In this document: one piece after another, positions 10,124 through 62,488 of the stretch
Numbering within the stretch: the stretch's first letter is position 1
How the letters are laid out: each line of letters begins with the position of its first letter
Source: Candidatus Moraniibacteriota bacterium
Lineage (GTDB): Bacteria > Patescibacteriota > Minisyncoccia > Moranbacterales > UBA1568
Assembly: GCA_013334575.1 (NCBI GenBank)
Contig: JAAXXG010000003.1
Coordinates: 12,699 to 76,698, forward strand
Length of the DNA stretch: 64,000 nucleotides
Direction: 5' to 3'
Made by a program: the position numbers and the translations under genes
Notes under the pieces: model-generated
Told to the model about the DNA's origin: nothing
The model's input: only the letters and a program-made list of their open reading frames with translations
Databases searched by the model: none

Positions 10124-10483
10124 AGTCAGTCAGCAGATAACAGTCAACGGGAAACGACGAACAAGAGCCGGGAAGCATGAGCCGGGAAGTACGGAATAGG
10201 GAACAGTGAATGCGATACGTAGGAGGATGATCCCTCCTGTTTATTGTTCATTGAGACCTGTTCACTGACATCATAGACAAATCCCTTCCGTTGGGCTAGG
10301 ATACGGGAGAAATATGGGGGTGTCATTCCGGGCTTGACCCGGAATCCATGGACGTTTCAGTGCTGAATCCCGGATCGATTGGCATGCGCCGGTCAAGAGC
10401 CCGGGACGACGGCGAAAGGGAATTTCGTCTTTTGGGAAAAGACTAGTTGCAAGTTGTCGGTTGTGAGTTGTCAGTTAATACTT

Positions 10484-10557
10484 GGGCCGTTAGCTCAGTT
10501 GGTTAGAGCGCCGCATTTGCAATGCGGAGGTCGCCGGTTCGAATCCGGCACGGTCCA
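10484..10557 (+). tRNA. tRNA-Ala (anticodon TGC)
   Basis: It folds as a cloverleaf with anticodon loop TTTGCAA, a G3:U70 acceptor pair and T-loop GGTTCGAATCC. Confidence 0.85.
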
Positions 10558-10582
10558 CTCTGATTTTCCGGGACGATGTCTT

Positions 10583-10618
10583 CCGGAGGTCACCGGTTCG
10601 AATCCGGTAGGGTCCACC
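10583..10618 (+). pseudogene. Orphan duplicate of the tRNA-Ala 3' half (T-arm plus acceptor), not a complete tRNA
   Basis: CCGGAGGTCACCGGTTCGAATCCGGTAGGGTCCA is nearly identical to the 3' 36 nt of the upstream tRNA-Ala. No matching 5' half is present. Confidence 0.5.
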
Positions 10619-10666
10619 ATGATTTTTCCAGACAACGTGGAACTTCTTCGTACCCCATCGCCGAAT

Positions 10667-13388: not shown

Positions 13389-13547
13389 TTTCTCCGTTAA
13401 CGGGTTATGATGTTCCCGTTTTGGTGCTTGACTCATTATTCCTTATCCCTGACCCGTCATAGACACTTGCTTCTTTTCGCAAGGCATGGTATCCTCCGAA
13501 TGACCTCGTTTTCGGGGTGTGCTCTTCGTAGTTCGAGCCGATTCATC

Positions 13548-13621
13548 GGGCGATTAGCTCAGTTGGTTAGAGCGCGTCACTGATAATGACGAGGTCCCAA
13601 GTTCGAATCTTGGATCGCCCA
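13548..13621 (+). tRNA. tRNA-Ile (anticodon GAT)
   Basis: It folds as a cloverleaf with anticodon loop CTGATAA. Confidence 0.85.
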
Positions 13622-17626: not shown

Positions 17627-17740
17627 AAATATTCCGGTCCTCCGTGTGTGTTGACTCGTCTCGGAATATCGGGTATCGTTCTAAGGAATCCGGTTCCGAG
17701 AGGATCGGCGGGTTCGTGTTCCGCCCCGCACCGCCTGTCT

Positions 17741-17814
17741 GCCAGGGTAGCTCAGTTGGTTAGAGCACGGGACTCATAAGCCCGGGGTCGAGAGTTCGAA
17801 TCTCTCCCCTGGTA
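17741..17814 (+). tRNA. tRNA-Met (anticodon CAT)
   Basis: It folds as a cloverleaf with anticodon loop CTCATAA and a G1-U72 pair. Confidence 0.75.
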
Positions 17815-17844
17815 CATGGTCGGAGCGGGACGGAAAAGCATGTT

Positions 17845-17918
17845 GGACCGGTAGCTCAGTTGGTTAGAGCGCCGCCCTGTCACGGCGGAGGTCGCGAGTT
17901 CGAGTCTCGTCCGGTCCG
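17845..17918 (+). tRNA. tRNA-Asp (anticodon GTC)
   Basis: It folds as a cloverleaf with anticodon loop CTGTCAC. Confidence 0.85.
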
Positions 17919-28770: not shown

Positions 28771-28972
28771 CGGATTAGAATATTTCGTGGTTCCTACCGA
28801 TGATACCGAGCCTCTTTTTCTCGGGATAAGAAGGGGTCGGTATCGTTTATGAATGGCGGGTCCGGAGAGGGTGTCAGAAGCTTTTTTCTTGTCGCCGAGA
28901 GGCGATAGCACCGACGCGCCTGCCTGGCAACGGGTCAGGCGTTTTTCGATAAAACCCCTAAATTCCCGAAAA

Positions 28973-29167: not shown

Positions 29168-30190
29168 ATGGAAAAATTCACCCGATTAACTCCGGAAAAT
29201 AAAACCTCAGGTATTGATAGGATACTGGGATTAGATCCTGAAGACGAGGTCGATATAAAAAAATATTTTTCGGAACTTTGTAAAAGAGAAAGCTTGGAAG
29301 TGTTTGCAAAAGAACCAAGTTTGGAGTTTAAAGAAATTTTTCCTAGCATAAATTCTTGTTTGCGAGAATTCCTTGAAGGATATGGAATAAGGCCTTTGGA
29401 TGTTTCATTATCTCAAATAGTATTTTTGGACAAGGAAAAACTTTCAGAAGGGCAGAGGTTATATTTTGAAAAAAGAAAAACAAACGCCTTTTATCATTCA
29501 AGATCGCAGAAAATCGTTCTTTTTAAGGATTGGAACGGGAATTCCAAACTAGCCGTTCTTCATGCGCTGGTGCATGAAATGGTTCATATGCAAGCTTTTG
29601 AAGCTTGGCAAAAAATTCCCAGGGAGCAAGAAGATGAAAGGGATTTCATTGTAAGTAAAGGTGATAGAAGTATACGTCTCGATCTCAGGAGATTAGGATT
29701 CAGGATGGTAGATAAAGATAGAGAAATTACGTATTTTCATGATTTAGATGAGGCGATTACCACGGAATTAACGATGCGTTTTGACTGGCAATATCTCGAA
29801 AGATTCCCCGAATTATCGGAGGAAATCAAAGAAAGAAGAGGTGTCATATTGGCGTACGCAAAAAGAAATAACTCTTCATTTGAACAAGAGAGAAGACATG
29901 TCGCGGAAATCGAGCATGAGCAATTGGAAAATGGAATAAAAAAAGTTAAGATAAATGGATATTCTTACGATCAAGAGCGAGAAAAATTCTTGATGCTGCT
30001 TGATGGGATATATAAAAATAGCTCGGAACGATTCGCCTCACCTGAAAATGTTTTCAAAGAATTTGCAACAGCGGCATTGACTGGAAATGTTTTGACAATC
30101 GCTCGCGTTATTGAGGGCGTGTATGGAAAGGGGTCTTTTCGCTATCTAGGCGAGAAAACGGCCGATAAAAGAAGCTCCGATACTGAATAG
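29168..30190 (+). CDS. Putative zinc metallopeptidase (HExxH), low-GC gene
   Basis: It has the motif AVLHALVHEMVHM (HEMVH). The gene is markedly AT-rich compared with its flanks. Confidence 0.4.
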   Translation: MEKFTRLTPENKTSGIDRILGLDPEDEVDIKKYFSELCKRESLEVFAKEPSLEFKEIFPSINSCLREFLEGYGIRPLDVSLSQIVFLDKEKLSEGQRLYFEKRKTNAFYHSRSQKIVLFKDWNGNSKLAVLHALVHEMVHMQAFEAWQKIPREQEDERDFIVSKGDRSIRLDLRRLGFRMVDKDREITYFHDLDEAITTELTMRFDWQYLERFPELSEEIKERRGVILAYAKRNNSSFEQERRHVAEIEHEQLENGIKKVKINGYSYDQEREKFLMLLDGIYKNSSERFASPENVFKEFATAALTGNVLTIARVIEGVYGKGSFRYLGEKTADKRSSDTE

Positions 30191-33349: not shown

Positions 33350-34228
33350 TCAATACCTTTGCATCACTTCTTCGGGTGTCTGGTACCCGATTCCCATATG
33401 AATCCGTTCCCCGTTGTAATACGGGAGGTATTTTGAAATTGCGTTTCTGAGCTTTGAAACGGAGCGTGGAACAAAGTCCAGGCACTCCTCCTGTATCGTA
33501 CGGTTGAACCGTTCCACATGCGCCTGATCGTTCGAGCGACGTTCCCTCGAGTGCCGGTGCGATATCCCGATTCGTTTCATCGCGTGCGTGAACCCGGTCG
33601 TGAACTCGGGTCCGTTGTCTGACTGGACCAACCGTATCTCAAACGGGGCCGATTCCCGGACCCGCCTCATGAACTCGACACTCTTTTTCGCCCCGATACG
33701 ATCCGTCGCCCAGGCAAAGCTCCACCTCGAGCAGAGATCAATCGCCGTATACACATAGACCCGTTCTCCCCTGGAAGACTGGAGGTGTATCGTATCGATT
33801 TCCACGAATGCTCCCGGATATGCGGCTTCCGGACGTCTCGTGTGGTCATGGGGTCGTTTCCAGGGAGAACGCTTCTTTGTCAGATGGCACCGGTCCAAGG
33901 TCCGCTGTACGGATGAGAGGGAAACCTTCATTCCGGCAGTCGTCAATTCATGATGGACCACCTGTCCGCACCGGTCATGTTCCAATCGTTTGTCGATGAT
34001 CGCCGAGACGATGTCTCGTGACAACGCTTTCGGATGATAGTGCGGCTTCGAAGACAGGGTCGGTATCGGTCCGACGTTCCGATGTTCCGCCTGCTTGGCC
34101 CACCGGATGATGGTGGACTGGTCATATCCGAAATATCTCGCCACTTCCCGGGAACTCTTTCCCGATCTGAGCATCTTCACCGCATCCCAGCGTACCTTCG
34201 GGATATTCGGGTTCGAGGAATATGCCAT
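33350..34228 (-). CDS. IS481-family DDE transposase (HTH plus rve integrase core)
   Basis: It has an N-terminal HTH (SSREVARYFGYDQSTIIRW) and an rve core with the D, D, E triad context (VEIDTIHL, YTAIDLCSRW, DNGPEF...HAMKRIGISHR). Confidence 0.75.
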   Translation of the reverse strand: MAYSSNPNIPKVRWDAVKMLRSGKSSREVARYFGYDQSTIIRWAKQAEHRNVGPIPTLSSKPHYHPKALSRDIVSAIIDKRLEHDRCGQVVHHELTTAGMKVSLSSVQRTLDRCHLTKKRSPWKRPHDHTRRPEAAYPGAFVEIDTIHLQSSRGERVYVYTAIDLCSRWSFAWATDRIGAKKSVEFMRRVRESAPFEIRLVQSDNGPEFTTGFTHAMKRIGISHRHSRERRSNDQAHVERFNRTIQEECLDFVPRSVSKLRNAISKYLPYYNGERIHMGIGYQTPEEVMQRY

Positions 34229-35386: not shown

Positions 35387-35461
35387 TCTCTTTTTTGGTT
35401 GCGGGTGCTGAGTATGCCGCGTCGATATTTTGACGGAGTCGCACTTCCTGGAAATATCCGT

Positions 35462-36112
35462 ATGAAACTATATCTTTCATCATACAAACTTGGGAACGAT
35501 ATCGAGGCCCTGAAAGGGCTTGTCCCCGCCGGGAACAGGAAGACGGCATTCATCCCGAACGCTCTCGATTTTTCCACTGATTCCGAACGGCGGGAGAAGA
35601 GCGAACGATCCGATGTCGAGGATTTGTCCGCGTTGGGTCTCGAGGTGGAACGATTGGATCTGAGGGACTATTTCGGCCTGCAGTCGGAACTGGAAACGAA
35701 GCTCGGTGATTTCGGCGTCATCTGGGTACGCGGCGGAAACGCGTTCGTACTTCGGAAGGCGATGAAGAAAAGCGGTTTCGATGAAATACTCCGGCGTTTC
35801 GTGGGGAAGAAGGAATTATTGTACGGGGGATATAGCGCGGGAATCTGCGTGTTGTCACCAACGTTGGAAGGGATAGACCTTGTCGACGATCCTTATGTAG
35901 ACCCGTACGGAGACCCTTCCGCGGCGTCGTTCGAAGGCCTCGGAATCGTTGACTATTCCATAGTCCCTCATTATCGGTCCGATCATCCGGAATCGGCGAG
36001 TATCGAAAAGGTCGTCGAATATCTTGAAGAAAAAGGGATCCGATATAGGACGCTCCGGGACGGGGACGTGATAATCTCGGAGGTTTCGGAGGAGTCCGCT
36101 GTGCGGGTCTGA
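35462..36112 (+). CDS. Peptidase S51 (dipeptidase E/cyanophycinase-like), paralog 1
   Basis: It has the VRGGNAFVL motif and the nucleophile context YGGYSAGICV. An upstream in-frame ATG at 35399 is an alternative start. Confidence 0.65.
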   Translation: MKLYLSSYKLGNDIEALKGLVPAGNRKTAFIPNALDFSTDSERREKSERSDVEDLSALGLEVERLDLRDYFGLQSELETKLGDFGVIWVRGGNAFVLRKAMKKSGFDEILRRFVGKKELLYGGYSAGICVLSPTLEGIDLVDDPYVDPYGDPSAASFEGLGIVDYSIVPHYRSDHPESASIEKVVEYLEEKGIRYRTLRDGDVIISEVSEESAVRV

Positions 36113-37058: not shown

Positions 37059-37258
37059 CACGACGCGCCTGCCCGGCAACGGACCGGGCGTTGTATTTTT
37101 AGTATCCTTGTTATTTTTTCCTAGAGGGGATATCGTAAAAAGGAAGTAACATTAGGTGGTAATACAGCTGCAAGAAACCGTTTCGGGCCGAAAAATCAAA
37201 AGAAAATTGATCTGCTTGTCATGTACGAGCATTTGTTTGTAGTCCAATAAATATAGAA

Positions 37259-38317
37259 TTGCAAAAATATATGGCAAAAAAAAATAAAAAAATAGAAGTC
37301 GTCGATCTTTTTAGTGGAGTAGGTGGTTTAACATACGGCTTAAGAAAGTCAGGATTGTCAGTTTTGGCTGGCATTGATAACGACCAATCATGTGCATATG
37401 CATATGAGAAAAATAATAAGGCAAGGTTTTTATCTGTTGATATATCGAAGTTTGATTTTAAAGAATTGAATAAAATTTATTCGAGGAACAGTGTTCGAGT
37501 ACTTGTTGGGTGCGCTCCGTGTCAACCCTTTTCTTCTCATGCTTATAAATTACGTAAAGACGAAAGTGACGTGCGCTGGAACTTGCTCAGTCATTTTATT
37601 AGAGGAATAAAAGTCGTCAAACCGGATATTGTTTCAATGGAGAATGTTCGAGGAGTTACGAAAACTGATGTATTTAAGAACTTCGTGAGTGAACTTGAAA
37701 AACTTGGTTATAAAGTTGATTGGAAAGTTGTATATGCACCAAATTATGGTGTGCCACAAAATCGAAGCCGCCTTATTTTGCTTGCTTCAAGACTTGGTGA
37801 AATTTCTATACCAAAAGAAACTCATACAAAAGACAATTATGTTACTGTTGGCGATGTCATTCGTGAGTTGCCAAGGATTGAAGCAGGGGAAGCATCAAAG
37901 CAGGATAAATTACATCAAGCAAAGAAGCTGGAACTTATAAATGAAAGGCGTATTTTGCAATCGAAGCCTGGTGGCACTTGGCGCGATTGGGATAAGAGTT
38001 TATTGCCGAATTGCTATAAAAAAGATAGTGGACAAACGTACACATCGGTATATGGACGTATGAAGTGGGAGGACGTATCGCCGACGATTACCACGCAATT
38101 CACAAGTTACGGATCCGGGCGATTTGGACATCCTGAACAGAATCGAGCGCTTTCAATTCGTGAGGGTGCGCTTTTGCAAACATTTCCCATTGATTATGAC
38201 TTTGGAGATTTTCCGGCTGCAAAATTGAGTCGACATATTGGTAATGCAGTGCCTCCTCAGTTGGGTGTTGTAATTGGAAGGCAAATAAAGAAACACATTG
38301 AAATCTATGGAAAGTGA
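37259..38317 (+). CDS. DNA (cytosine-5)-methyltransferase (Dcm type), AT-rich gene
   Basis: Motif I is VVDLFSGVGG. Motif IV is GCAPCQPFS. Motif VI is ENV. Motif VIII is QNRSRLIL. Motif X is GNAVPP. Confidence 0.9.
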   Translation: MQKYMAKKNKKIEVVDLFSGVGGLTYGLRKSGLSVLAGIDNDQSCAYAYEKNNKARFLSVDISKFDFKELNKIYSRNSVRVLVGCAPCQPFSSHAYKLRKDESDVRWNLLSHFIRGIKVVKPDIVSMENVRGVTKTDVFKNFVSELEKLGYKVDWKVVYAPNYGVPQNRSRLILLASRLGEISIPKETHTKDNYVTVGDVIRELPRIEAGEASKQDKLHQAKKLELINERRILQSKPGGTWRDWDKSLLPNCYKKDSGQTYTSVYGRMKWEDVSPTITTQFTSYGSGRFGHPEQNRALSIREGALLQTFPIDYDFGDFPAAKLSRHIGNAVPPQLGVVIGRQIKKHIEIYGK

Positions 38318-39953
38318 AAAGTATACATTTAATATATCCCTGAGCGTTTTAAATCATCTTGGCAGAAATTTATATCGCAGCTTTGTTACGATACTTGGTG
38401 AGGGTATTTCTAATGCTTGGGACGCTGACGCGGACAGCGTTTATATTTACTACGATTCCGAAAATCAAACCTTATGCATCATGGACGATGGTGCTGGTAT
38501 GAGTTCTGAGGATTTTCAGGGTAAATTTCTACGTGTAGGCTATACAAAACGAAAAGGTTGTGGCCTAACAAGCCCTGGAGGGCGTCATTTTATTGGGCGT
38601 AAAGGGATTGGAAAGCTAGCACTTCTGTCTGCCGCTCAAACTGTAACAGTCATAACTAAGACCAAAGATGGCGAGTTTGTTTGTGGTGTTATTGATAACG
38701 GCGGATTGGACGAGGCTATTGATGAGGACACACAACAGGCTGATTATCCACTAGGTACGGTTGATCCTATCGCTTTTCTAGAGGAAAAGAATATAAGGAT
38801 TAACAAATCAGGTACCGTCGTTTGGTTTGATGGGTTGAAAGAAAAAGCAAGCCATAGTTTTGATTTTATAAAAAAATCTCTTGCTCTTTACTTTAGATTT
38901 TCATTGCAGGACTCAAATTTCAAAATATATTTTAATAATGAATTGGTCACGGTGAAAGAATTGCAAGGACTTTGTGATAGAACTCAGTTTTTATGGCAAC
39001 TCAACGATTCATTCTCTGATGATTTTATAAATCAAATGAGTCCAAAAAGAACTGATGTAATACTTGATGATCAAAAAATAACGGGGTTTATTGCATCTGT
39101 TAATGAGCCTAGAGACAGAAACATATTTGGCTCAGGAGAACGTGTTGGTATTGATGTGTTTGTGAACGGACGCATTAGAGAAGTTGATATACTAAAACAC
39201 TTTCCTCGATCACGTATCCCCGAGCAATATTTATATGGACAAGTTCATCTAAACGATTTCGACAATGACGAAGTTGACCGGTTTACAAGCAGTCGTGAAG
39301 GAATACATGTTGATGATCCTGATTTTAAAATAATTCGTGAAAAACTTGGCGAAGTAGTTAATTCCATTATTAAACAATGGGATGTTTGGCGGCTTGAATT
39401 GAGAGAAGAGGGAGATAGCGATAACGAGGAAAATCTTAAAAAAGAGCAACGATATTCAAGAAATTTATATAACCAAGTGGCCTCAAAATATGTGCCAGCG
39501 TCTGAACAAGCCGATACGGTCAGACAATGGGAACATGAGCTGGAGAAAGACGCCGAATTAAATCTTCGTTCGTATGCAGAATGCTTCATCTCTGAAAATT
39601 TGGTTAGAAGGTATTGGCAAGAGAAAGAAATTAATCCAGACCAAAACTCATCGCAAGAAGTAAGTCATTGGAGAAACTGTGAGACAAGAGACAAAAATCA
39701 GGCAAATATATCAATAGATATACGTCTTGATAACGATGACAAATACTACATTGGAATGGAGAACTTAGCGCGACAAGCAGAGGCTCCGGGAGCTGCTGGT
39801 TCTGGTAACGCTAGTTTGCCACATGATGCAAAGGCTTTTGCGCCGTTGAGAAATGCAGTTATGCACACTTCTTTACTCACAGATCAAGCAAAAAGTAGAT
39901 TAACTACAGTCCTGGATAATATAAGAGGGCGGATTAAAACTTTGCTTCAATAA
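38298..39953 (+). CDS. MORC/HATPase_c_3-type GHKL ATPase (551 aa) with C-terminal Rx4H HEPN-like motif
   Basis: The N-box reads EGISNAWDADA, G1 reads IMDDGAGMS and G2 reads GRKGIGKLA. The C-terminus has LRNAVMH (Rx4H). Its start overlaps the dcm 3' end by 20 nt. The gene is AT-rich. Confidence 0.6.
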   Translation: MKSMESEKYTFNISLSVLNHLGRNLYRSFVTILGEGISNAWDADADSVYIYYDSENQTLCIMDDGAGMSSEDFQGKFLRVGYTKRKGCGLTSPGGRHFIGRKGIGKLALLSAAQTVTVITKTKDGEFVCGVIDNGGLDEAIDEDTQQADYPLGTVDPIAFLEEKNIRINKSGTVVWFDGLKEKASHSFDFIKKSLALYFRFSLQDSNFKIYFNNELVTVKELQGLCDRTQFLWQLNDSFSDDFINQMSPKRTDVILDDQKITGFIASVNEPRDRNIFGSGERVGIDVFVNGRIREVDILKHFPRSRIPEQYLYGQVHLNDFDNDEVDRFTSSREGIHVDDPDFKIIREKLGEVVNSIIKQWDVWRLELREEGDSDNEENLKKEQRYSRNLYNQVASKYVPASEQADTVRQWEHELEKDAELNLRSYAECFISENLVRRYWQEKEINPDQNSSQEVSHWRNCETRDKNQANISIDIRLDNDDKYYIGMENLARQAEAPGAAGSGNASLPHDAKAFAPLRNAVMHTSLLTDQAKSRLTTVLDNIRGRIKTLLQ

Positions 39954-40128
39954 AGAAACTCACTCGCGTTATCAGGTCTTTGAGCGCGTGCTGTTAGGTG
40001 TTAGGGTAGGTCAGGCACAAGTAAATTAACTTGTGCGTTAGTGTAAACCGCTTTGAATGTCGGCAAGAAAATGGGTCAGTTACTCTTTCGAAGAGGATTT
40101 TTGAACCCATTGGCGGCTCGTGACCCGG

Positions 40129-40385
40129 AACGTGTTTCCTGATAGAGTGGTGAAAATACGTAGCGGGAAATAGTGATGAAGCGTATCCGGACCATCGTCC
40201 TTACCGGCGGGCCGTGCGGCGGCAAGAGCACGGTCCTGCGGGCCTTGCGCGAGGAATTCGGCGACCGGCTGGTGCCGGTGCCGGAGGCGGCGACCGTCCT
40301 CTTCGAGGGTGGTTTTCCGGTTCCCGGCCGCGATATCGAATGGAGCGAGGAGTGGCGGGAGGCCTTCCAACCGGCCGTGTTACAT
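40129..40385 (+). repeat. Copy 1 (~257 bp) of the promoter plus 5' end of the 43917 P-loop kinase gene
   Basis: It is about 95% identical to 43862-44120 and then diverges. Confidence 0.8.
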
Positions 40386-40518: not shown

Positions 40519-41661
40519 ATGCGTGATAACCTGCATATCCCGAAACCCGATTTCGGGTCCAATCTCACTCGGCTGGTCGTCAAATTGGACCATCTGCGGT
40601 CACAGAACCTGTCCGGGAGCACTCCGGCGCATATCTTCTTCCAACTCAAGGAGATCTTTCACCTGCTCGAAAGCCTCGGCTCGACGCGCATAGAGGGAAA
40701 TCATACGACCTTAGCGGAGTACATCGAGACGAAGATCACCCCGGACGAACATCCGACGGAAGGGATCCGGGAGATACAGAACAACGAGGAAGTCATGGAT
40801 TTCGTCGAGAAGACCGACACGACCGGTCCGATTACGCACGCCTTCATCCGTGAAATCCAAAGCATGATCGTCCGCGACCTCTCGACAAACAGGGAGGGCG
40901 ATCATACTCCGGGACAATATCGGAACAAGAACGTCGCAATCAGTCATTCCGAGCATACGCCGCCGGACTTTGTCCGGGTCCGGGAATACATGGACGAGCT
41001 GGTCGACTTCATAAATGCTGAGAATGAACCGCAGTTCGATTTGCTGAAGACTGCGATCATGCATCATCGGTTCGCCTGGATACACCCGTTCGGAAACGGG
41101 AACGGTCGGACCGTGAGAGCGTTGACGTACGCGATGCTTATACGCCAGGGATTCAATCTGGAGAAGGGACGTCTGGTAAATCCGACCGCAGTCTTTTGTG
41201 TCGACAGGAACCGGTACTACGAGATGCTCGAGAAGGCTGATTCGGGGAATGATGCTGACGTGCTCGCATGGTGCGAATATGTCTTGGACGGACTCGATCG
41301 TGAAATCACGAAAGTGAACCGGCTTACCGATTATGCCTATCTGAAGGACGTCATCCTGAAACCCGCCATCGGGATATCTTTCGAAAGGAATTTCATCGCG
41401 GAAAAAGAGCGGAAAATTCTTCTGATAGCGGTCGATAAGCCGCTTTTTCAGGCGGGAGATATCGCTCATCTGTTCCCGGGCGTCGCGCATACCGAGGTAT
41501 CCCGATTCCTCCGCGGGATGCGGGAGAAGAAACTTATCCGGCCAATCGCGCCGAATGCCAGGAAATATTCGATGGAAATCGCAAACGGGTATCTGTTGCG
41601 AGGCATCATGAAGGCACTCGATGAGAACGACTTTCTGCCCCTGAAGGGCGAGGCGGAGTAG
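40519..41661 (+). CDS. Fic-family protein (AMPylase/Fido domain)
   Basis: It has the Fic motif HPFGNGNGRTVRAL (HxFx[DE]GNGRxxR) and a C-terminal wHTH-like region. Confidence 0.85.
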   Translation: MRDNLHIPKPDFGSNLTRLVVKLDHLRSQNLSGSTPAHIFFQLKEIFHLLESLGSTRIEGNHTTLAEYIETKITPDEHPTEGIREIQNNEEVMDFVEKTDTTGPITHAFIREIQSMIVRDLSTNREGDHTPGQYRNKNVAISHSEHTPPDFVRVREYMDELVDFINAENEPQFDLLKTAIMHHRFAWIHPFGNGNGRTVRALTYAMLIRQGFNLEKGRLVNPTAVFCVDRNRYYEMLEKADSGNDADVLAWCEYVLDGLDREITKVNRLTDYAYLKDVILKPAIGISFERNFIAEKERKILLIAVDKPLFQAGDIAHLFPGVAHTEVSRFLRGMREKKLIRPIAPNARKYSMEIANGYLLRGIMKALDENDFLPLKGEAE

Positions 41662-41741: not shown

Positions 41742-41846
41742 CCGTGACCCGGACCGCGTTTCCTGATAGAGTGGGGAAAATACGTAGCGGGAATCGATGA
41801 AGCGTATCCGGACTATCGTCCTTACCGGCGGGCCGTGTAGAGCCCT
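41742..41846 (+). repeat. Copy 2 (~105 bp) of the kinase promoter plus first ~30 codons
   Basis: It reads CCGTGACCCGGACCGCGTTTCCTGATAGAGTGGGGAAAATACGTAGCGGGAATCGATGAAGCGTATCCGGACTATCGTCCTTACCGGCGGGCCGTG. A TAG follows. Confidence 0.8.
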
Positions 41847-41891
41847 TTATGAATAGGTGGGGGTTGATTGAGTACTTAGTAAGGTATCTTT

Positions 41892-42464
41892 ATGATGAAG
41901 TTTGATGAGCCTCCGCGCGGCGGATCTTTAGAGGAGTGCTCTAAAGAGTCGTATATGAATCCTCGTTCGGATAGGCCGAAGTACAAGGGGCGTGATAGGG
42001 AAATCGGAGAGCGAGAAGCTAAACGACGACTCGCCATTCTTCCCAAGTTGGAAAAGATTTCTCGCGACTTCTGTGCGAAGCATTCCATAGAAAATTGTCC
42101 GATTTTGATTCCAAAGGGTTCTGCCGATGTCGGCATGAGTACTCCAGAGAGTGATTTTGATGTGGCGGTTGTTGTTAGCTCGCCTCATATTTTCCTGCAG
42201 GATCCGAACGTATGGAGGCAATATGTATCTATGCTTGAGGTGGCTGCTGATGAGGACTTCCGAGTGGAGCTACATCTTATTTCTCGATCGGAATCTGGTC
42301 TCCGTTTCGGAACGGAATTTTCCAATCATATTTCAAATGCTGAGTCGGATTCCGGATTCGGGGATTTATTTAAGAAGTTTGCTGAGTTTAAGATAGGAAA
42401 GGCGGATTGTATAAAGGATAAAAATCATGGCCAAGATACGTCCGACACGAATTCGATGGGGTAG
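41892..42464 (+). CDS. Minimal nucleotidyltransferase (MNT, Pol-beta superfamily)
   Basis: It has the motif KGSADVGMSTPESDFDVAVVV (GS...[DE]xD). It is a low-GC gene. The true start may be the internal ATG at 41955. Confidence 0.65.
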   Translation: MMKFDEPPRGGSLEECSKESYMNPRSDRPKYKGRDREIGEREAKRRLAILPKLEKISRDFCAKHSIENCPILIPKGSADVGMSTPESDFDVAVVVSSPHIFLQDPNVWRQYVSMLEVAADEDFRVELHLISRSESGLRFGTEFSNHISNAESDSGFGDLFKKFAEFKIGKADCIKDKNHGQDTSDTNSMG

Positions 42465-42505
42465 TTTTGAGTCTGTGTATTTTAGGATAAACCTGTCGCG
42501 GAACC

Positions 42506-42604
42506 CGTGACCCGGACCGCGTTTCCTGATAGAGTGGGGAAAATACGTAGCGGGAATCAATGAAGCGTATCCGGACTATCGTCCTTACCGGCGGGCCGTG
42601 CGGC
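42506..42604 (+). repeat. Copy 3 (~100 bp) of the kinase promoter plus first ~30 codons
   Basis: It is a near-identical paralog of 41742-41846. Confidence 0.8.
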
Positions 42605-42691
42605 AAAAAAGGGCCGGTCACCTCTTTTGCCCGGAGTGGGATCGCGATAGTGTCGGTATCGATAAAAGTTGCATGACACTTTTCTGCAGGA

Positions 42692-43795
42692 ATGTTTTTG
42701 GAACTTATTCGATCAATTTTTATGGAAAAATTTTTTACACAAGAAGTCAATGCGACCGGAAAGAGTATTGAGAAAGGGAGCGATTTTTTTGGGAGAATCG
42801 AAGAGCACTCTCGCGCCTTTGATCGTGAGACTGCTGATACGCGCAAGCGTTCTCGGGATGAAATACGAGAGCACTGGCGTGAGACGGAATGGAAAATCGG
42901 GGATACGACAGTGCATGCCATTGGCGTGATGCATGTGCCGGAGACGTTTTTGGAGTATCGCAAAGAAATCGAGAACGCAATCAAAGAAAGCGATATTGTT
43001 GTGAATGAATTCGCTCCCGAAGCGTTGGGTTTGTATGACAAGGAATCCGTACCGCACCTGCAACGGACGGCATCCCTGTTCAATGAGCATTATAATTTGG
43101 AACAATTACGGCAGATATATTTGAAGAACGAACGAGAATGGAATACGGGCATGTTTCATCATGAGATAGAGCTTCTTACGGCGAAATATGATAAAGATAT
43201 GGCGCTTATGGATCTCAATATGACCAAGGATTGTGAAGATTTGCTTCAGGGGAGCTCTTTGTATGCTCATGCTGCGGAACAGTCTGATGAGAATGCCGCA
43301 ACGCTCAAAAAACTCGGTTTGTACGCCGGGGCGGCCGCTTCAGTTGCCGGCGCCGTGGCGCAGAAACCCATGTCACGGAGGAAATTTTTGCGGCTTGCCC
43401 TTCTCGGTACCGGAGCGACGATAGCCGGAATAACACCAAAGCTGACTGAAACCCCGCCTCAAACAGCCATTAAGAAAGAGATGTCGATGGAGGACAAGCG
43501 GGTCGGCATGGTATTGCGTGATTTGCAAATCGCCGATTCTTTGCAGCGTCTTGCGGGGCTCGGGTATAAAAATATCACGTTTATTTACGGAGTCGGTCAT
43601 CTGTCCGGAGTCGGGAAACATCTGCATAATCCGGAAGAGTTTAGAAACATGTTGGATGAAAAAAAGGAACAACTTCATGCGTGCAATTCCGACGCCTTTC
43701 GCATATACCGTCTTGCGGACGGAGAAAATACGTCGGAAAAATTCGTCGCTTCGGACAAAAAGGTTTGGAAGCGCATCTCACCTGCAAGGGTTTAA
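42692..43795 (+). CDS. TraB/GumN-family protein
   Basis: The N-terminal motif reads TTVHAIGVMHVPETF (hxhVGxxHV). The C-terminal motif reads IYGVGHLSGV. It is a low-GC gene. Confidence 0.45.
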   Translation: MFLELIRSIFMEKFFTQEVNATGKSIEKGSDFFGRIEEHSRAFDRETADTRKRSRDEIREHWRETEWKIGDTTVHAIGVMHVPETFLEYRKEIENAIKESDIVVNEFAPEALGLYDKESVPHLQRTASLFNEHYNLEQLRQIYLKNEREWNTGMFHHEIELLTAKYDKDMALMDLNMTKDCEDLLQGSSLYAHAAEQSDENAATLKKLGLYAGAAASVAGAVAQKPMSRRKFLRLALLGTGATIAGITPKLTETPPQTAIKKEMSMEDKRVGMVLRDLQIADSLQRLAGLGYKNITFIYGVGHLSGVGKHLHNPEEFRNMLDEKKEQLHACNSDAFRIYRLADGENTSEKFVASDKKVWKRISPARV

Positions 43796-43916
43796 TTTCA
43801 GAAAACGTACCTTGTACTTCTCGAATGAAGTATCAGGGTCGAATTTTCGGGAGGCAAGGAACCGTGACCCGGACCGCGTTTCCTGATAGAGTGGGGAAAA
43901 TACGTAGCGGGAATCG

Positions 43917-44549
43917 ATGAAACGTATCCGGACCATCGTCCTTACCGGCGGGCCGTGCGGCGGCAAGAGCACGGTCCTGCGGGCCTTGCGCGAGGAATTC
44001 GGCGATCGGCTGGTGCCGGTGCCGGAGGCGGCGACCGTCCTCTTCGAGGGCGGTTTTCCGGTTCCCGGCCGGGACATCGAGTGGAGCGAGGAGTGGCAGG
44101 AGGCGTTCCAACCGGCCGTGCTGGCGCTGCAGGCCGCGCTCGAACAAAGTCACGCGCTCTTGGCCGCGGACCGGGACGTGGTGCTCGTGTGCGACCGGGG
44201 CCGGCTCGACGGGGCGGCGTATACCGAGGGCGGCGTCGGGGCGTTCTGCCGGATCCACGGGCTCGACGAGACCGAGACGCACGGACGGTACGACCTGGTG
44301 ATCCATCTGGAGTCGCTTGCGACGAGCCATCCCGAACGCTACGGGACCGAGGGGAACGCCGCGCGCTACGAGTCGCTCGAACAGGCGCAGGCGCTTGAGC
44401 GCGCGACGCGGGAGGCGTGGGGGAATCATCCACGGCGGAAAATGATCGGCGGGGAGCGGGGGATGGAGGGAAAGATCGAGGATGTGGTCGCGGTCGTGCG
44501 CGAACTGCTCGGCGAGGGCTCGGAATATTCCGATAAGGGACAACGATAA
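43917..44549 (+). CDS. AAA_28/NadR-like P-loop NTPase (predicted nucleoside/nucleotide kinase), full length
   Basis: The Walker A is LTGGPCGGKST. It is 210 aa. Its promoter and 5' end exist in three further upstream copies. Confidence 0.65.
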   Translation: MKRIRTIVLTGGPCGGKSTVLRALREEFGDRLVPVPEAATVLFEGGFPVPGRDIEWSEEWQEAFQPAVLALQAALEQSHALLAADRDVVLVCDRGRLDGAAYTEGGVGAFCRIHGLDETETHGRYDLVIHLESLATSHPERYGTEGNAARYESLEQAQALERATREAWGNHPRRKMIGGERGMEGKIEDVVAVVRELLGEGSEYSDKGQR

Positions 44550-57820: not shown

Positions 57821-57920
57821 AAGCGGTTCAGGAAGACCTGAAAGCCTTCCTCCTGTCACTTGGCATCGGCACAGACGACATCGTCACCAAAGGCTACGAC
57901 ACGCTATTGTATGAGAAGGG
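57821..57920 (+). repeat. Orphan copy (~100 bp, ~92% identity) of the 3' end of the CYTH gene at 59101-59200
   Basis: It would encode ...AVQEDLKAFLLSLGIGTDDIVTKGYDTLLYEKG*. It sits between the 56283 gene and the S51 paralog. Confidence 0.8.
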
Positions 57921-57940
57921 GATCTGATTACACATCGACT

Positions 57941-58564
57941 ATGAAACTGATACTCGCTTCCGATTTGAGCTTTGTCCTGAAATACGGATATGGCCATACC
58001 GGTATCCCGAAGGCGGATATGCGGATCGGGTATGTGACGACCGCAACGAAGGGCGCTCGCTCGAAGGAATTTTTTGAAAACATGGAGCGGCAGATCGTGG
58101 AGTCCGGATATACTTTCGAGGAGTTCGACATCGAAGGAAAAAGCGCAGAAGAAATGAGATCGTTCTTCTCGGACAAGAATGTGATCCATATCGAGGGTGG
58201 CAATACCTTCTATCTTCTGAAAGCCATCCGAGAAACCGGCTTCGCCGAGGTACTCGATGAACTTCTCAAAGAGGGGAAAGTCTATATCGGTACGAGTACG
58301 GGATCCTATATAATGTGCCCGTCGATCGAAGTGGCGGATTGGGACGAAACCGGAAAAAGCCGGTTCGGAATGACCGACTTCACCGCCCTCAATTATGTCC
58401 CGTTCGTCCTCAAGGTACATTACAAGGATGAGATGCAGGAATCCGTGAGGGAAAAGATGAAGACTGCGCACCATCCGCTCCGATTACTGCGTGAAGGGCA
58501 AGGCATCCTCGTCGACAACGGCGTCGAAACCTTCGTCGGTGACGGAGAAGAAACGGTGTTATAG
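57941..58564 (+). CDS. Peptidase S51, paralog 2
   Basis: It has the IEGGNTFYLL motif and the nucleophile context IGTSTGSYIM. Confidence 0.65.
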   Translation: MKLILASDLSFVLKYGYGHTGIPKADMRIGYVTTATKGARSKEFFENMERQIVESGYTFEEFDIEGKSAEEMRSFFSDKNVIHIEGGNTFYLLKAIRETGFAEVLDELLKEGKVYIGTSTGSYIMCPSIEVADWDETGKSRFGMTDFTALNYVPFVLKVHYKDEMQESVREKMKTAHHPLRLLREGQGILVDNGVETFVGDGEETVL

Positions 58565-58626: not shown

Positions 58627-58665
58627 TATTCCGTTCCGATGGTGGGGTATGTCATTAGTACCGAC

Positions 58666-59229
58666 ATGAAGGAAATCGAGATCAAAGCTCGGATGCGCGA
58701 TATCGACACGCTGACCGGGGCGCTTGCCGCCAAGGGGTTCGTGTTCGGCGAACCCGCGGTCCAAAACGACGTGATATTCCTGCCGGCCGGGATCGAGTTC
58801 CCGGAAATCACCAAAGGGGTTCCGGTCGTGCGCGTGCGGAACGCGGACGGCGTTTCGACCCTGACGCTCAAGATGGGTGTCGTCGCCGGGAAGGAGCTCA
58901 TAAAGCTGGAGAAGGAGGTGAGGGTGGGCGACGACAAGACGGCTATCGAGATCGTCTCGCTTATGGGATTTCACGAGGTGATACGAGTCGGCAAGAAACG
59001 GATGGAATGCGAACACGACGGCGTGACCGTCTGTATCGACGACGTGACCGGACTCGGGGCGTTCATCGAGGTCGAGCAATTGTCGGACGCTGAAAACGAC
59101 GAAGCGGTCCAGGAAGAGCTGAAAGCCTTCCTTCTGTCGCTCGGCATCGGCACAGACGACATCGTCACCAAAGGCTACGACACGCTTTTGTATGAGAAGG
59201 ATAGCCGCTTTGCAAGGATTGGATTATAG
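58666..59229 (+). CDS. CYTH-domain protein (class IV adenylate cyclase-like), paralog 2
   Basis: The N-terminus reads MKEIEIKARM (ExExK). It has the CYTH beta-barrel motifs. Its 3' 100 bp are duplicated at 57821-57920. Confidence 0.65.
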   Translation: MKEIEIKARMRDIDTLTGALAAKGFVFGEPAVQNDVIFLPAGIEFPEITKGVPVVRVRNADGVSTLTLKMGVVAGKELIKLEKEVRVGDDKTAIEIVSLMGFHEVIRVGKKRMECEHDGVTVCIDDVTGLGAFIEVEQLSDAENDEAVQEELKAFLLSLGIGTDDIVTKGYDTLLYEKDSRFARIGL

Positions 59230-59308: not shown

Positions 59309-60568
59309 ATGAATCTAAAAACATTCGATGTGCATTCATATCGATCATGCCAGAGCGTTAAATTTCCTCTTAATAGAGATTTAACTGGTTTGATTGGGAT
59401 AAATGGATCGGGTAAAACCAACGTTTTGAATTCAATTTTTTTGCTGAGAAAAATATCAGAATTCAGATTCAAATACGCGAATAATCGAGACACAGAATAT
59501 AATACTTGCAAAATTGGAGCAGTCTTTGAACATAACGGGATATCCATTCAGTTGAAGGCGACGATCTATCTTGAAATGGATGAACGAAATAATGACGAGA
59601 TAATTTCTTCCGATTTTAAATGGAAGTTTTCGAATTATAATTCGAAAGAATGGCTGACAATTCCTATTGAATTCTTTTCGAATCAATTTAATAGCAGCTC
59701 ATTTCATCTTCCAGTAAGTATTCGTAGTAACATTCGTTTTTCAAAAGGATCAAGGGGCAGTTTTTTTGAAATATATAAATTATTCCATACAAAAGAATTT
59801 AAAAAAAATGTGCAACCATTACTTCATGAAGTATTTGAATTCATCAATGGAATAAATTATTATAGCGCGACACAATTTTCTGATCCCGGACGCTGTCCAG
59901 TCTCTATTGAACTGGAAGAAGACAGGTTTCGAAGGAGGACGCATTCTTCATCTGGTCATGAGCAGTTCATTTTCGATTTATATAATTCACACAAGCAAAA
60001 TGATAAGGAGTTTATAAGATATTTTAATACAATAGGCAAAGTTGGAATTGGTCTGATTGACGAATTGTCTTTTGAGACTTTACCAATTCCATCAAGTACC
60101 TATAAGGTGCGATCTGGTGGTCAAATTAAACAAAAAAATTTCGAGAGACAACTGATCGTACCAATTTTTACAATTAATGGTAAGAAATTGTCGCCTAACC
60201 AATTATCTGAAGGGACGTTCAAGACATTAGCATTGCTCTATTACCTCATTACGGATAAAAGCACACTACTTCTAATTGAGGAACCTGAGGTATGTATCCA
60301 TCATGGCTTGCTCGACAGTATAATTAAGTTATTGATTAGTCAGTCAAAGCATAAACAAATTATTATAAGTACACATTCGGATTTTGTACTAGATCACTTG
60401 TCACCAGAGAATATACTCCTTGTTAAATATCTGGAGACAAAAGGAACAACGGTTAAACAATTATCAAAGTCAATGAGTAGTGATGAGTATCGGGCTCTGA
60501 AGATGTATCTCAAAGAGTCGGGTAATTTAGGTGAATATGCACGAGAAGGCGGATTCGAGTATGAGTAA
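59309..60568 (+). CDS. OLD/ABC-type AAA ATPase (AAA_21-like), AT-rich gene
   Basis: The Walker A is GINGSGKTN. LSEGTFKTLALL is signature-like. The Walker B is LLLIEEPEVCIHH. The H-loop is IISTHS. Confidence 0.75.
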   Translation: MNLKTFDVHSYRSCQSVKFPLNRDLTGLIGINGSGKTNVLNSIFLLRKISEFRFKYANNRDTEYNTCKIGAVFEHNGISIQLKATIYLEMDERNNDEIISSDFKWKFSNYNSKEWLTIPIEFFSNQFNSSSFHLPVSIRSNIRFSKGSRGSFFEIYKLFHTKEFKKNVQPLLHEVFEFINGINYYSATQFSDPGRCPVSIELEEDRFRRRTHSSSGHEQFIFDLYNSHKQNDKEFIRYFNTIGKVGIGLIDELSFETLPIPSSTYKVRSGGQIKQKNFERQLIVPIFTINGKKLSPNQLSEGTFKTLALLYYLITDKSTLLLIEEPEVCIHHGLLDSIIKLLISQSKHKQIIISTHSDFVLDHLSPENILLVKYLETKGTTVKQLSKSMSSDEYRALKMYLKESGNLGEYAREGGFEYE

Positions 60569-61145
60569 ACGAAAGCCAAGAGTCGGAATAATTGCAGAAG
60601 ACAGGAGTGATATTGAGTGCGTACGAGCGCTGATTTTTCGAATAACAAATGATAATAAAATTGGTGTAGACGGGATGGCGAAAAATGGATGCACCATGCT
60701 GGTTCGGAAGTGCGGACATTGGGCTGTTAATTTACATGAAAAAGGATGTAATTTGCTAATTGTGATTCATGATTCGGATGGGAAAGATCCGCGTGCGATA
60801 CATAATAGGATTGAGCTTGCGCTTCATGCGTGTCCGATAGTAAAGAAAATAATCACAATACCTGTCGAAGAAATTGAAGCCTGGTTGCTTGCTGATCCTA
60901 ATGCAATAAAAAAAGGCATCAATTTAGATAAGATTCCAAAAATTAATAGAAACGTTGAACAAATATCTTCCCCAAAGGAATTTCTCGAAGACATTATTGA
61001 TAAAACATCTAATCGAGAAAAGATCTATATTAATAGTAAACATAATGCAATGATTGCTCGCAACATCGATATAGAAAAGATTAAGGAAAAGTGCCCATCC
61101 TTTTTGCCGTTTCTTAAATTTGTACAGGAAAACACTGTTTCGTAG
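60561..61145 (+). CDS. TOPRIM-like small protein (DUF4276/RloB-like), partner of the upstream ATPase
   Basis: It has a conserved Glu in GIIAEDRSD, a DxD in VIHDSDG and an EIEAWLLADP motif. Its start overlaps the ATPase stop as ATGAGTAA. It is AT-rich. Confidence 0.55.
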   Translation: MSKRKPRVGIIAEDRSDIECVRALIFRITNDNKIGVDGMAKNGCTMLVRKCGHWAVNLHEKGCNLLIVIHDSDGKDPRAIHNRIELALHACPIVKKIITIPVEEIEAWLLADPNAIKKGINLDKIPKINRNVEQISSPKEFLEDIIDKTSNREKIYINSKHNAMIARNIDIEKIKEKCPSFLPFLKFVQENTVS

Positions 61146-61423: not shown

Positions 61424-61864
61424 ATGCTTATGAAGGTAGGTGTTGATTATATCGGAGTCGGATGCGGGGCTATCGTCATAAACGAAAAGGACGAAGTACT
61501 GCTCCTGAGGCGATCGACAACGTCGCGGACCGATCCCGGAAAATGGTGTCGTCCGGGCGGGCAGGTCGAATTTGGTGAGTCTGTCGCGGCTGCGGTCGAG
61601 CGTGAAACGAAGGAAGAGGCGGGTATCGTCGTACGCGCAATCAGGCCGCTTGAATTCACGGATGATCGTTCCGAAGATATGTCGAAACACTGGATTGCAC
61701 TCGGGTATCTCGCCGAACACGTTTCCGGTGAACCGGTGAACGTTGAACCTGACAAGCACGACACAATCGGATGGTTTCCGCTTGACCAGCTTCCGGAAAA
61801 CCTGGCGACATATACAAAGAACTCGATTGACGTGTATCTTGATCAAAAGCGATACGGGCTGTAA
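61424..61864 (+). CDS. NUDIX hydrolase
   Basis: The Nudix box reads GGQVEFGESVAAAVERETKEEAGI (Gx5Ex7REUxEExGU). Confidence 0.8.
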   Translation: MLMKVGVDYIGVGCGAIVINEKDEVLLLRRSTTSRTDPGKWCRPGGQVEFGESVAAAVERETKEEAGIVVRAIRPLEFTDDRSEDMSKHWIALGYLAEHVSGEPVNVEPDKHDTIGWFPLDQLPENLATYTKNSIDVYLDQKRYGL

Positions 61865-61873
61865 GAAGTTTCT

Positions 61874-62488
61874 ATGCTCATCTTTCTCGCGTCGACTGCG
61901 GCAAAGACTATCGATAGGATCGTACCGCTGTTGCCGAAACCGGCCGCAGAGATGCGGGTGGCGTTTGTTCCGACGGCGGGTGATATTTACGATCCGCATC
62001 CGTGGGTTGAGGCGGACCGGGATGCGCTCGTCGGTCTCGGGTTCCAGGTCGCGGATATTGACTTGAAGACATGCCACGGAGAAGAGCTGAGGAAACGACT
62101 TTCCGGGGCGGATATCATCTTTGTCGCCGGAGGGAGCACTTCGTATCTTCTTGAGCAGGCACAACTGAGCGGCTTCGTTGTCATCGCGCGGGATCTTGTT
62201 CGGGCGGGGAAGATATACGTCGGCTCGAGCGCCGGGTCACTTCTTGCGGGCCCTGATATCGAGGTGGACAAGGTATATGACGAAGGGGATTTCGGAAAGA
62301 CGTTGGCCTCGTATGAGGGACTCGGACTTGTCGATTTCGTCGTCTTGCCGCATGCCGACCGTTTGGACTATCTTCCGTATCTGGAACGGGCGGAGTTGGA
62401 GTATGGTGAGGGCCGAAAGCTGGTTAGGCTCAATGAAATGCAGGCGATTGTCGTCACGGACGACGGGATGAAACGTATTGAGGCATGA
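61874..62488 (+). CDS. Peptidase S51, paralog 3
   Basis: It has the FVAGGSTSYLL motif and the nucleophile context YVGSSAGSLL. Confidence 0.65.
   Translation: MLIFLASTAAKTIDRIVPLLPKPAAEMRVAFVPTAGDIYDPHPWVEADRDALVGLGFQVADIDLKTCHGEELRKRLSGADIIFVAGGSTSYLLEQAQLSGFVVIARDLVRAGKIYVGSSAGSLLAGPDIEVDKVYDEGDFGKTLASYEGLGLVDFVVLPHADRLDYLPYLERAELEYGEGRKLVRLNEMQAIVVTDDGMKRIEA

Follow-up and report, generated by a model that had tools for sequence, protein, structure and literature searches.

In the HgiDII and BbrUII systems (GTCGAC), a 5-methylcytosine (m5C) DNA methyltransferase (MTase) and a GHKL-type restriction endonuclease (REase) are encoded by two genes, and the REase is a GHKL+S5 protein whose C-terminal ~280 residues have a consensus with a PD-(D/E)xK-like motif. 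Putative REases of the GHKL type were catalogued in 2008, with an R.NmeAIP subfamily bearing a Ymh C-terminus (Orlowski & Bujnicki, PMC2441816), and paraMORCs with restriction-endonuclease-fold or TIR C-termini were described in Dcm/Vsr contexts in the same year (Iyer et al., PMC2292703). In 2013, fusions of a paraMORC to a Ymh HEPN domain near DNA methylases were proposed to be analogues of PrrC and RloC, in which an NTPase module governs a C-terminal HEPN RNase and is functionally tied to restriction-modification (R-M) (Anantharaman et al., PMC3710099). Furthermore, phage defence by GHKL-Shedu (paraMORC3; VcSduA) was shown experimentally in 2025, with ATPase and nuclease residues both required (PMC12137116). 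Here we describe a gene pair in a 64,000-nucleotide (nt) stretch of DNA from Candidatus Moraniibacteriota bacterium (assembly GCA_013334575.1, contig JAAXXG010000003.1, positions 12,699 to 76,698; hereafter the window), in which an m5C MTase gene overlaps the gene of a GHKL ATPase with a HEPN-like C-terminal domain. We place a probability of roughly 0.6 on the reading that this pair is a horizontally transferred, methylation-guarded, R-M-like module in which a GHKL ATPase-HEPN RNase fills the restriction position.

The window pair resembles HgiDII/BbrUII in its two-gene layout. Its GHKL+S5 module is 30-37% identical to theirs, and the partner MTases have a related layout at 34% identity, but a HEPN-like domain of ~170 residues stands in place of the PD-(D/E)xK-like region. 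The paraMORC-Ymh fusions, likewise predictions only, share the concept and the domain order of the window protein but differ in HEPN family. An NTPase module that governs a C-terminal HEPN RNase tied to R-M, as in PrrC and RloC, is also what we propose here; however, those proteins are ABC/Rad50-type and not GHKL ATPases, and no sequence similarity between them and the window protein was detected. PrrC is reportedly restrained by a complete Type I enzyme and not paired with a lone m5C methylase. GHKL-Shedu has an effector at its C-terminus and, at its N-terminus, a GHKL ATPase that controls it, as we propose for the window protein, but that effector is a DUF4263 PD-(D/E)xK DNase and many members stand alone without a methylase, unlike the window pair. 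The GHKL protein had no match to SduA_C or SduA (Shedu, DUF4263) in Pfam (E ≤ 0.1) or PADLOC. An initial annotation of this DNA had offered the combination as an unusual effector; GHKL (paraMORC)-HEPN fusions in R-M neighbourhoods had in fact been predicted before, but for the Ymh HEPN, which is unmatched here. In the literature we searched, this HEPN subfamily was the subject of no paper, and we came across no experiment that tested any GHKL-HEPN protein. The pair is a variant of the predicted kind that is common and consistently mis- or under-annotated.

Both open reading frames (ORFs) that the initial annotation had placed on the + strand are present, one from 37259 (TTG) or 37271 (ATG) to 38317 and the other from 38298 (TTG) or 38307 (ATG) to 39953. 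We prefer the ATG starts, 37271 and 38307, because the N-termini of homologues fit them. The GHKL protein then has 548 amino acids (aa), not the 551 aa first given from its TTG start, and the MTase has 348 aa. The two genes do overlap, but by 11 nt and not by 20 nt. That the MTase stop overlaps the GHKL start suggests translational coupling. The features of the pair are as follows.

37271 to 38317 (alternative TTG start at 37259), + strand: m5C DNA methyltransferase of 348 aa (PF00145, TIGR00675), the proposed self-protecting modification component
38307 to 38317, + strand: overlap of the MTase stop and the GHKL start, 11 nt, ATGGAAAGTGA
38307 to 38876, + strand: GHKL (Bergerat-fold) ATPase domain, residues 1 to ~190 (PF13589, invariant motifs, AlphaFold2 (AF2) model, Foldseek)
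38877 to 39317, + strand: S5-fold transducer, residues ~191 to 337 (AF2 secondary structure, Foldseek, invariant residues)
39318 to 39446, + strand: long helix (338-364) and acidic linker E-E-G-D-S-D-N-E (AF2 model; alignment to the relative P0300)
39444 to 39950, + strand: HEPN-like domain, residues ~380 to 548, a predicted RNase effector (helices 379-395, 402-440, 504-519 and 526-547; insert 446-503)
39594 to 39608, + strand: Ex3[KR] motif E430-N-L-V-R434 in HEPN helix 2 (translation; 120 of 120 homologues)
39849 to 39866, + strand: Rx4H motif RNAVMH with R515 and H520 (translation; 120 of 120 homologues; position in the model)

We compared the GHKL protein with its homologues, of which the protein search gave more than 4,500 clusters at E ≤ 0.001; conservation counts use the 120 best, all of them full-length and at least 48% identical. 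HEPN domains carry Rx4-6H where helix 3 ends, and an acidic Ex3[KR] in helix 2, with an insert between helices 2 and 3 (PMC3710099). The sequence LRNAVMH (39846-39866) had initially been read as such an Rx4-6H motif. By itself the motif is not beyond chance, as a shuffled protein of the same composition would be expected to contain Rx4H 0.65 times. However, we take it as real because R515 and H520 are invariant in the 120 homologues, at ~50% identity, and R515 is followed by N in 51 of them and by D in the other 69. E430 and R434 are kept in all 120 as well. A separate model of residues 337 to 548 (pLDDT 92, pTM 0.81) is all-helical, and in it R515 lies at the end of helix 504-519, H520 in the loop beyond, and E430x3R434 in the long helix 402-440, which the variable insert 446-503 parts from helix 504-519. 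Thus, the model has four helices and the HEPN motif layout, including the polar residue (N/D/H) that follows the R of Rx4-6H, the helix-2 Ex3[KR] and the helix 2-3 insert, and the core of the initial proposal is supported. Foldseek of this model against the PDB gave nothing significant, and the best match was Csm6, a HEPN protein, at E 1.2. From the motifs, the topology and this moderate fold similarity, we consider it highly likely that the C-terminal domain is a HEPN domain, and we infer that it is a catalytic RNase and toxic.

Profile searches placed the domain outside the families that have been modelled. Pfam scans of residues 232-548 and 361-548 at E ≤ 10 returned noise alone (CENP-X, DUF7180), and no NCBIfam or PADLOC model matched the C-terminal domain. 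Because there was no match to the Ymh HEPN models either (PF09509 at E ≤ 10, TIGR02391 at E ≤ 0.1), the C-terminus appears to represent a different, unmodelled HEPN family. A profile built from 26 C-terminal sequences gave a spurious DEPTOR match alone against PDB sequences, and against a set of 5.8 billion proteins it gave fragments of its own family only, with no other architecture and with "-" as the precomputed Pfam entry for all of them. Domain scans and the model contained no PD-(D/E)xK, HNH, GIY-YIG or PLD motif or domain in the C-terminus. A second conserved Rx6H (R291-H298) was rejected as a HEPN motif, since it lies in the MutL-like VNGRxRE...KH segment of S5 in an alpha/beta context. 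Within the helix 2-3 insert (window residues ~446-503), the homologues P0006 to P0016 (67-75% identical) have a zinc-ribbon-like insertion of ~30 residues with four cysteines; the window protein and P0001 to P0005 are without it and there resemble the majority at ~50% identity. This patchy occurrence may reflect recombination inside the C-terminal domain.

The N-terminal module is that of a GHKL ATPase. It matches PF13589 (HATPase_c_3) at E 2.5e-18 and 66.8 bits (cut-off 25), with motif I at E32xxxN36, motif II at D60xGxG64 and the ATP lid at G97RKGIGKLA105. Since E32, N36, D60, G62, G64 and G97-G102 are invariant in the 120 homologues, the protein belongs to the GHKL ATPase superfamily, and the MORC/MutL-type Bergerat fold proposed at the outset was confirmed (EGISN, DDGAG and GRKGIGKLA are present and invariant). 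The ATPase is presumably active, judging from these residues. An AF2 model of the whole protein (pLDDT 80.7, pTM 0.76) consists of GHKL residues 1 to ~190, an S5-type transducer at ~191-337 and an all-helical C-terminus. The S5 domain holds an FVNGRxRE segment, which we take to be MutL-like, and a conserved TSSRE; R330 and E331 of the latter are invariant in the 120 homologues and are a candidate phosphate sensor. Foldseek matched the model best to MORC2/3/4 (E 4e-12), Hsp90/TRAP1/GRP94 and SMCHD1, over 400-470 columns at E 4e-12 to 1e-10. Because Hsp90, TRAP1 and SMCHD1 score about equally, the MORC likeness holds at the level of GHKL+S5. A transducer after the GHKL domain and a conserved basic residue place this module with the MORC/paraMORC/MutL type. 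"MORC-like" is therefore correct for the GHKL+S5 module, and "paraMORC-type" is the more precise label. The window protein has the fold and the FVNGR motif in common with MutL and eukaryotic MORC, but it lacks the C-terminal dimerisation/endonuclease domain of MutL and the CW and coiled-coil domains of MORC.

The upstream partner is a C-5 cytosine DNA methyltransferase. It matches PF00145 end to end (E 5e-63, 214 bits, cut-off 22, profile positions 2-324 of 324) and TIGR00675 (dcm) at 154.5 bits (cut-off 100.65), and the full motif set that had been claimed for it is visible in the translation as FSGVGG, PCQ, ENV and QNRSR (motifs I, IV, VI and VIII). PADLOC scored it about equally as DrmMII (307.5 bits) and MTase_II (304.6 bits). 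The DrmMII match suggested DISARM class 2, which we rejected since no drmA, drmB or drmC adjoins it; the flanking genes encode an S-adenosylmethionine (SAM) methyltransferase, an S51 peptidase, Fic and AAA_28. The target recognition domain (TRD) region is conserved as strongly as the catalytic motifs and is gap-free in 79 partner MTases, which suggests a single recognition specificity or a conserved protein-protein interface. GTCGAC cannot be assumed to be the recognition sequence, as the partner MTase of the HgiDII class is just 34% identical, with indels, and we claim no specificity.

Next, we determined how consistently the two genes occur together. In contigs from one genome per species, 308 loci have a relative, and linkage counts use the 80 best of these. 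The 80 loci come from Saccharibacteria, other candidate phyla radiation groups, Woesearchaeota, Bacteroidota, Omnitrophota, Planctomycetota, Nitrospirota, Chloroflexota, Actinomycetota, Proteobacteria and Acidobacteriota. An MTase 42-89% identical to that of the window lies immediately upstream on the same strand in 77 of them, and downstream and convergent in two (L014, L037). The remaining locus (L066) has no detectable MTase, but its contig stops 480 bp beyond the GHKL gene and is too short to tell. Linkage to an MTase, whose absence from other genomes would have counted against a functional pair, was thus found in 79 of 80 loci. The pairing of a GHKL-HEPN protein with Dcm had been called unusual; instead it is common, with relatives in 308 species-representative genomes and the same arrangement in 77 of 80 loci. 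At 68 of the 75 measurable junctions the genes overlap, mostly by 4, 11 or 14 nt, and a gap does not exceed 30 nt in 73 of 75. An MTase and a second gene kept together across genomes is what characterises Type II R-M, and this pair behaves in that way (79 of 80 linked, 68 of 75 overlapping). A Vsr gene occurs in 28 of the 80 loci, in most of them right after the GHKL gene; the other 52, the window among them, have no adjacent Vsr. Names attached to the 120 homologues, where there are any, are "ATP-binding protein" or "DNA mismatch repair protein" only.

In two independent cases, an intact MTase stands beside a GHKL-HEPN gene that has broken into two ORFs, one N-terminal and one C-terminal (L081, 3896-5546, and L082/L083, 4015-5705, the latter found on five contigs). 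From the sequences, this is the decay expected of a costly or toxic partner. The MTase of L082 is a Vsr-Dcm fusion of 492 aa, and L081 has alongside a second Dcm, a faintly PvuII-like gene and a gene for a 1274-aa helicase. At L066 (96-1518), an ORF with an MZB domain (helicase C-terminal) and a PLD-family nuclease stand upstream of the GHKL-HEPN gene in a DISARM-like neighbourhood.

The initial annotation had the GHKL protein beside a solitary Dcm, but over its first ~380 residues the protein shares homology with the characterised BbrUII/HgiDII REases. Residues 6-378 match NF050001 (BbrUII/HgiDII) over profile positions 1-377 of 659. At 265 bits against a cut-off of 550, and with the C-terminal nuclease region unmatched, the protein falls outside the BbrUII/HgiDII family itself. 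Given this homology, the GHKL protein stands where an R-M lineage has its restriction subunit. We searched exhaustively with HMMER, using residues 1-380, obtained 256 representative clusters at E < 1e-30, and sorted the C-termini of the top 150: 72 have a HEPN-like C-terminus, ~40 are 640-710 residues long and five have a TIR-type C-terminus. The three tested proteins of 640-710 residues (P0322, P0329, P0334) are true BbrUII/HgiDII, at 659-777 bits, and form the next clade in the search. The C-terminal consensus of their group contains R.DI.Y...ELK, which we read as a PD-(D/E)xK-like motif, and P0329 (HgiDII class) has a weak, sub-threshold match to SduA_C. In the five TIR-type relatives, the C-terminus matches the SpbK TIR model of PADLOC at E ~1e-14.

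We obtained the genomic contexts of the TIR variants by exact look-ups. Three of the five sit directly behind MTases that are 59-74% identical to that of the window over the full length, with the genes overlapping, and these MTases are closer to the window's than are most partners of the HEPN variants. The paraMORC4-TIR (PMC2292703)/SpbK-type TIR proteins are the closest relatives outside the family of the window protein (37-48% identity in GHKL+S5); the MTase orthogroup upstream and the gene overlap are the same, but the effector is TIR (spbK E 1e-14 to 2e-16) instead of HEPN. The alignment of the HEPN protein with the TIR protein P0300 ends at about residue 382, with the long helix and linker as the last shared part, and by this alignment the effector swap point is at about residues 380-385. 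Two loci hold more than one version. In an Omnitrophota metagenome-assembled genome (L051, JBAYES010000003.1, 3005-7638), genes for an MTase, a GHKL-TIR protein (628 aa, spbK E 2e-16) and a GHKL-HEPN protein (547 aa) stand in tandem in that order, with two effector types behind one MTase. In L060 (2362-7656), an MTase gene is followed by an HgiDII-type GHKL gene that is split (250 + 293 aa; REase_II PDLC03419 as far as profile position 567), then by Vsr and lastly by an intact GHKL-HEPN gene. Further TIR-variant loci were found neither in a word-index search with the P0300 C-terminus nor in an alignment-based scan or a metagenome scan. Taken together, these comparisons identify the C-terminal domain, at the level of sequence, as an exchangeable effector that is HEPN, TIR or, in the HgiDII class, PD-(D/E)xK-like. 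Because the core is conserved while the effector exchanges, specificity must reside in the MTase and the GHKL+S5 core. Furthermore, because TIR NADase variants share this core, a non-DNase output is compatible with this sensor. A GHKL+S5 relative of 705 aa (P0347; PADLOC REase_II PDLC03485, 436 bits) has a differing long C-terminus that ends in ...NFRNAIHPW..., and its R-N-x2-H motif, with three-residue spacing, may mark another effector type.

The pair had been described as AT-rich in a GC-rich genome, and GC is indeed 0.387-0.401 at 37-40 kb against 0.53-0.65 in the flanks; across the rest of the window it is 0.50-0.66, against 0.39-0.40 in the MTase/GHKL block. To the closest relative (L001), nucleotide similarity is 82.7% and confined to 37255-39954, with the two proteins 91% and 89% identical to those of the window. 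Since the similarity spans those ORFs only, the mobile unit is just the two genes. Thus, a two-gene cassette was horizontally acquired, as its GC (~0.39 against ~0.6 in the flanks) and the limits of its similarity to L001 indicate. Its left edge, beyond which GC falls, is the following feature.

37070 to 37099, + strand: terminator-like GC hairpin and T-run ending the upstream host gene (7-bp stem, 6 GC pairs, tail TTGTATTTTT)

Copies of a GC-rich hairpin at 28912-28943 and 37061-37092 are 88% identical, with a T-run after the 37061 copy, and stand just 5' of two AT-rich (GC ~0.38) foreign blocks, namely the gene at 29168-30190 and the MTase/GHKL pair; the hairpin may be a preferred insertion site. 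A promoter scan upstream of the pair gave no more matches than expected from shuffled sequence. The exact window protein recurs, with its context unchanged, in assembly GCA_013336155.1 and two sequencing runs, and the window region had no match among plasmid records.

How such a module might work can be proposed from its parts. The m5C methyltransferase would mark one specific DNA sequence in the host genome. DNA without the cognate m5C would be detected by the GHKL+S5 module, either directly or via the co-translated MTase as specificity subunit. A complex of the two proteins, with the MTase as specificity subunit by analogy with Type III systems, is a reasonable idea because the overlap is near-universal and a single MTase orthogroup is involved. 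ATP binding would then cause N-terminal dimerisation, as in GHKL+S5 ATPases generally, and join two HEPN domains into an active, metal-independent RNase whose cleavage of RNA would stop growth or abort infection. Methylated self DNA would keep the system silent, and loss of the MTase would be toxic. In this scheme, we infer that the protein is toxic, which RNA it cuts, what triggers it and how the MTase contributes to targeting. The stronger proposal of methylation-gated abortive infection, in which m5C defines self and a GHKL/S5 clamp fires an interchangeable HEPN or TIR effector with no DNA cutting, is plausible but tentative, and we would put it at somewhat below even odds.

Several points weigh against an R-M-like module with a HEPN RNase in the restriction position. 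The literature we searched yielded no biochemical or genetic evidence for this family. There is no evident sequence-specific DNA-recognition domain, which leaves the readout of unmethylated sites unexplained. Characterised relatives cleave DNA, not RNA, and a conserved MTase of single specificity is equally expected of a conventional Type II enzyme. In addition, errors of sequencing or assembly could account for the split genes in some cases.

Should the C-terminal domain prove to be an active RNase, the module would combine two defence strategies that are mostly considered apart, the epigenetic discrimination of self from non-self found in R-M and the suicide-type effectors of abortive infection. 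A natural series for experiments is on offer, in which the same methylase and ATPase scaffold occur with HEPN or TIR, and in which the more distant HgiDII/BbrUII relatives have this scaffold with a PD-(D/E)xK-like region. This series could show how GHKL/MORC-type ATPases turn DNA sensing into effector activation, which bears on eukaryotic MORC. The pair is carried by hundreds of genomes under the two labels given above alone. PADLOC would probably type the locus as ordinary Type II R-M because REase_II models match the GHKL protein, and the nature of the C-terminal domain is invisible to standard annotation because it is without a Pfam model. Were methylation-gated abortive infection to be true, annotation pipelines would now be labelling a widespread class as ordinary Type II R-M.

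The alternative that survives best is that the GHKL protein is a conventional Type II REase, ATP-dependent or ATP-stimulated, which cleaves unmethylated DNA at the MTase site and uses its helical C-terminus to recognise or cut DNA. Over its N-terminal 380 residues it shares homology with a characterised family of restriction enzymes, and the REBASE-derived REase_II models of PADLOC match it (E 1e-34 and 4e-32). However, these matches and that to NF050001 end at about residue 360-400 and leave out the nuclease part, and the NF050001 score is far under its cut-off. HEPN chemistry is metal-independent and needs the 2'-OH of RNA, and therefore cannot cut DNA as known (PMC3710099); the all-helical C-terminus, in turn, yielded no known DNase motif or domain. 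The strict pairing with one MTase orthogroup of conserved TRD, the Vsr often found within the operon, and the decay of the GHKL gene with the methylase kept, as in R-M systems, are all consistent with a Type II enzyme, but the same sensor and the same MTase also carry TIR, which is not a DNase. We consider a conventional REase unlikely.

Type II R-M systems are known to act as addiction modules. The pair could likewise be a post-segregational-killing module with the MTase as antidote and the GHKL-HEPN protein as toxin, which stabilises mobile DNA and has no anti-phage role. The toxin-antidote evidence (linkage, split genes, overlaps) is shared between this explanation and the methylation-guarded R-M-like module that we prefer, and the block is inserted foreign DNA. 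However, addiction and defence are not separable by computation, and neither role excludes the other. The cassette lies among defence-type genes (the SoFic-like Fic and the HEC-01 pair described below), with no obvious plasmid or prophage backbone, and a purely addictive role is improbable.

In E. coli, MutL is reported to stimulate Vsr, and the Vsr genes that follow many of the GHKL genes, the one Vsr-Dcm fusion and the "DNA mismatch repair protein" labels given to some members by their sources would suit a MutL-like accessory to very-short-patch (T:G) repair that travels with Dcm and Vsr, recruits or stimulates Vsr at deaminated m5C and is neither a toxin nor a defence effector. This reading, for which a parallel between MutL, Vsr and the MORC/paraMORC-methylase association has been drawn (PMC2292703), is the least probable of those considered, as Vsr is not adjacent in 52 of 80 loci (the window among them), the two cases of a GHKL gene split next to an intact MTase fit a costly gene more easily, and it accounts neither for the invariant HEPN catalytic set, nor for the exchange of the C-terminus for an SpbK-like TIR or PD-(D/E)xK-like region, nor for a patchy cross-phylum spread that is typical of mobile defence genes.

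The surroundings of the pair bear out the initial annotation in part. No classical REase is adjacent, as stated there; the upstream neighbour encodes a class I SAM methyltransferase and the downstream one Fic. The Fic assignment stood (PF02661), but the TraB-like match is weak (E 6e-4, below the Pfam cut-off) and the MNT-like gene had no Pfam match. The Fic protein, encoded directly downstream at 40519-41661, matches PADLOC SoFic, a reported defence family, at E 8e-49. A second AT-rich pair (GC 0.37) at 59309-61145, 20 kb from the module, encodes an AAA_21/ABC ATPase (419 aa) and an overlapping DUF4276 protein (204 aa), and it matches the PADLOC candidate system HEC-01A/B at E 6e-24 and 5e-15. 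The suggested defence island is thus partly supported, with a SoFic-like Fic adjoining and a HEC-01 candidate pair at some distance.

Two repeat families were found in this region. The upstream region and 5' end of an AAA_28 ATPase gene (43917-44549) are repeated fourfold, at 40119-40379, 41742-41856, 42505-42619 and 43862-44120, with a 58-nt core and 115-nt and 205-nt extensions at 83-96% identity. The + strand gene that follows differs from copy to copy, and at 40175-40379 the copy amounts to a truncated AAA_28 gene. A sister assembly (L084) is without two genes placed between copies of the repeat, the MNT-like one (41892-42464) and the TraB-like one (42692-43795), and the arrangement looks like serial insertion at one hotspot whose target was regenerated each time. 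In the second family, seven intergenic direct repeats of 63-90 nt (CTTGCCTTTTCGGCCCGGAGGGGTATGGTGG...TATAAAAAGGTACCTGACC), at 25161, 27258, 28975, 30862, 31949, 35244 and 35325, are arranged in a cassette-like way, upstream of one + strand gene after another, and these genes vary in GC. We rejected an integron cassette array, as these repeats have no recognisable attC features, nor did we see an integron integrase in the vicinity of the module.

Several further genes were noted in the window. An insertion sequence-type transposase gene (HTH_23 and rve integrase core) at 33350-34228 is the sole clear minus-strand gene in the annotated ~27-47 kb, where the other genes are on the + strand. Three paralogous S51 peptidase genes lie at 35399-36112 (two genes upstream of the module), 57860-58564 and 61874-62488, with CYTH (58639-59229) and NUDIX (61424-61864) genes near the two distal copies. 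Finally, a tRNA-like repeat family at 10482-10638, 13546-13620 and 17739-17917 occurs by lower-GC segments (10-14 kb, GC ~0.50).

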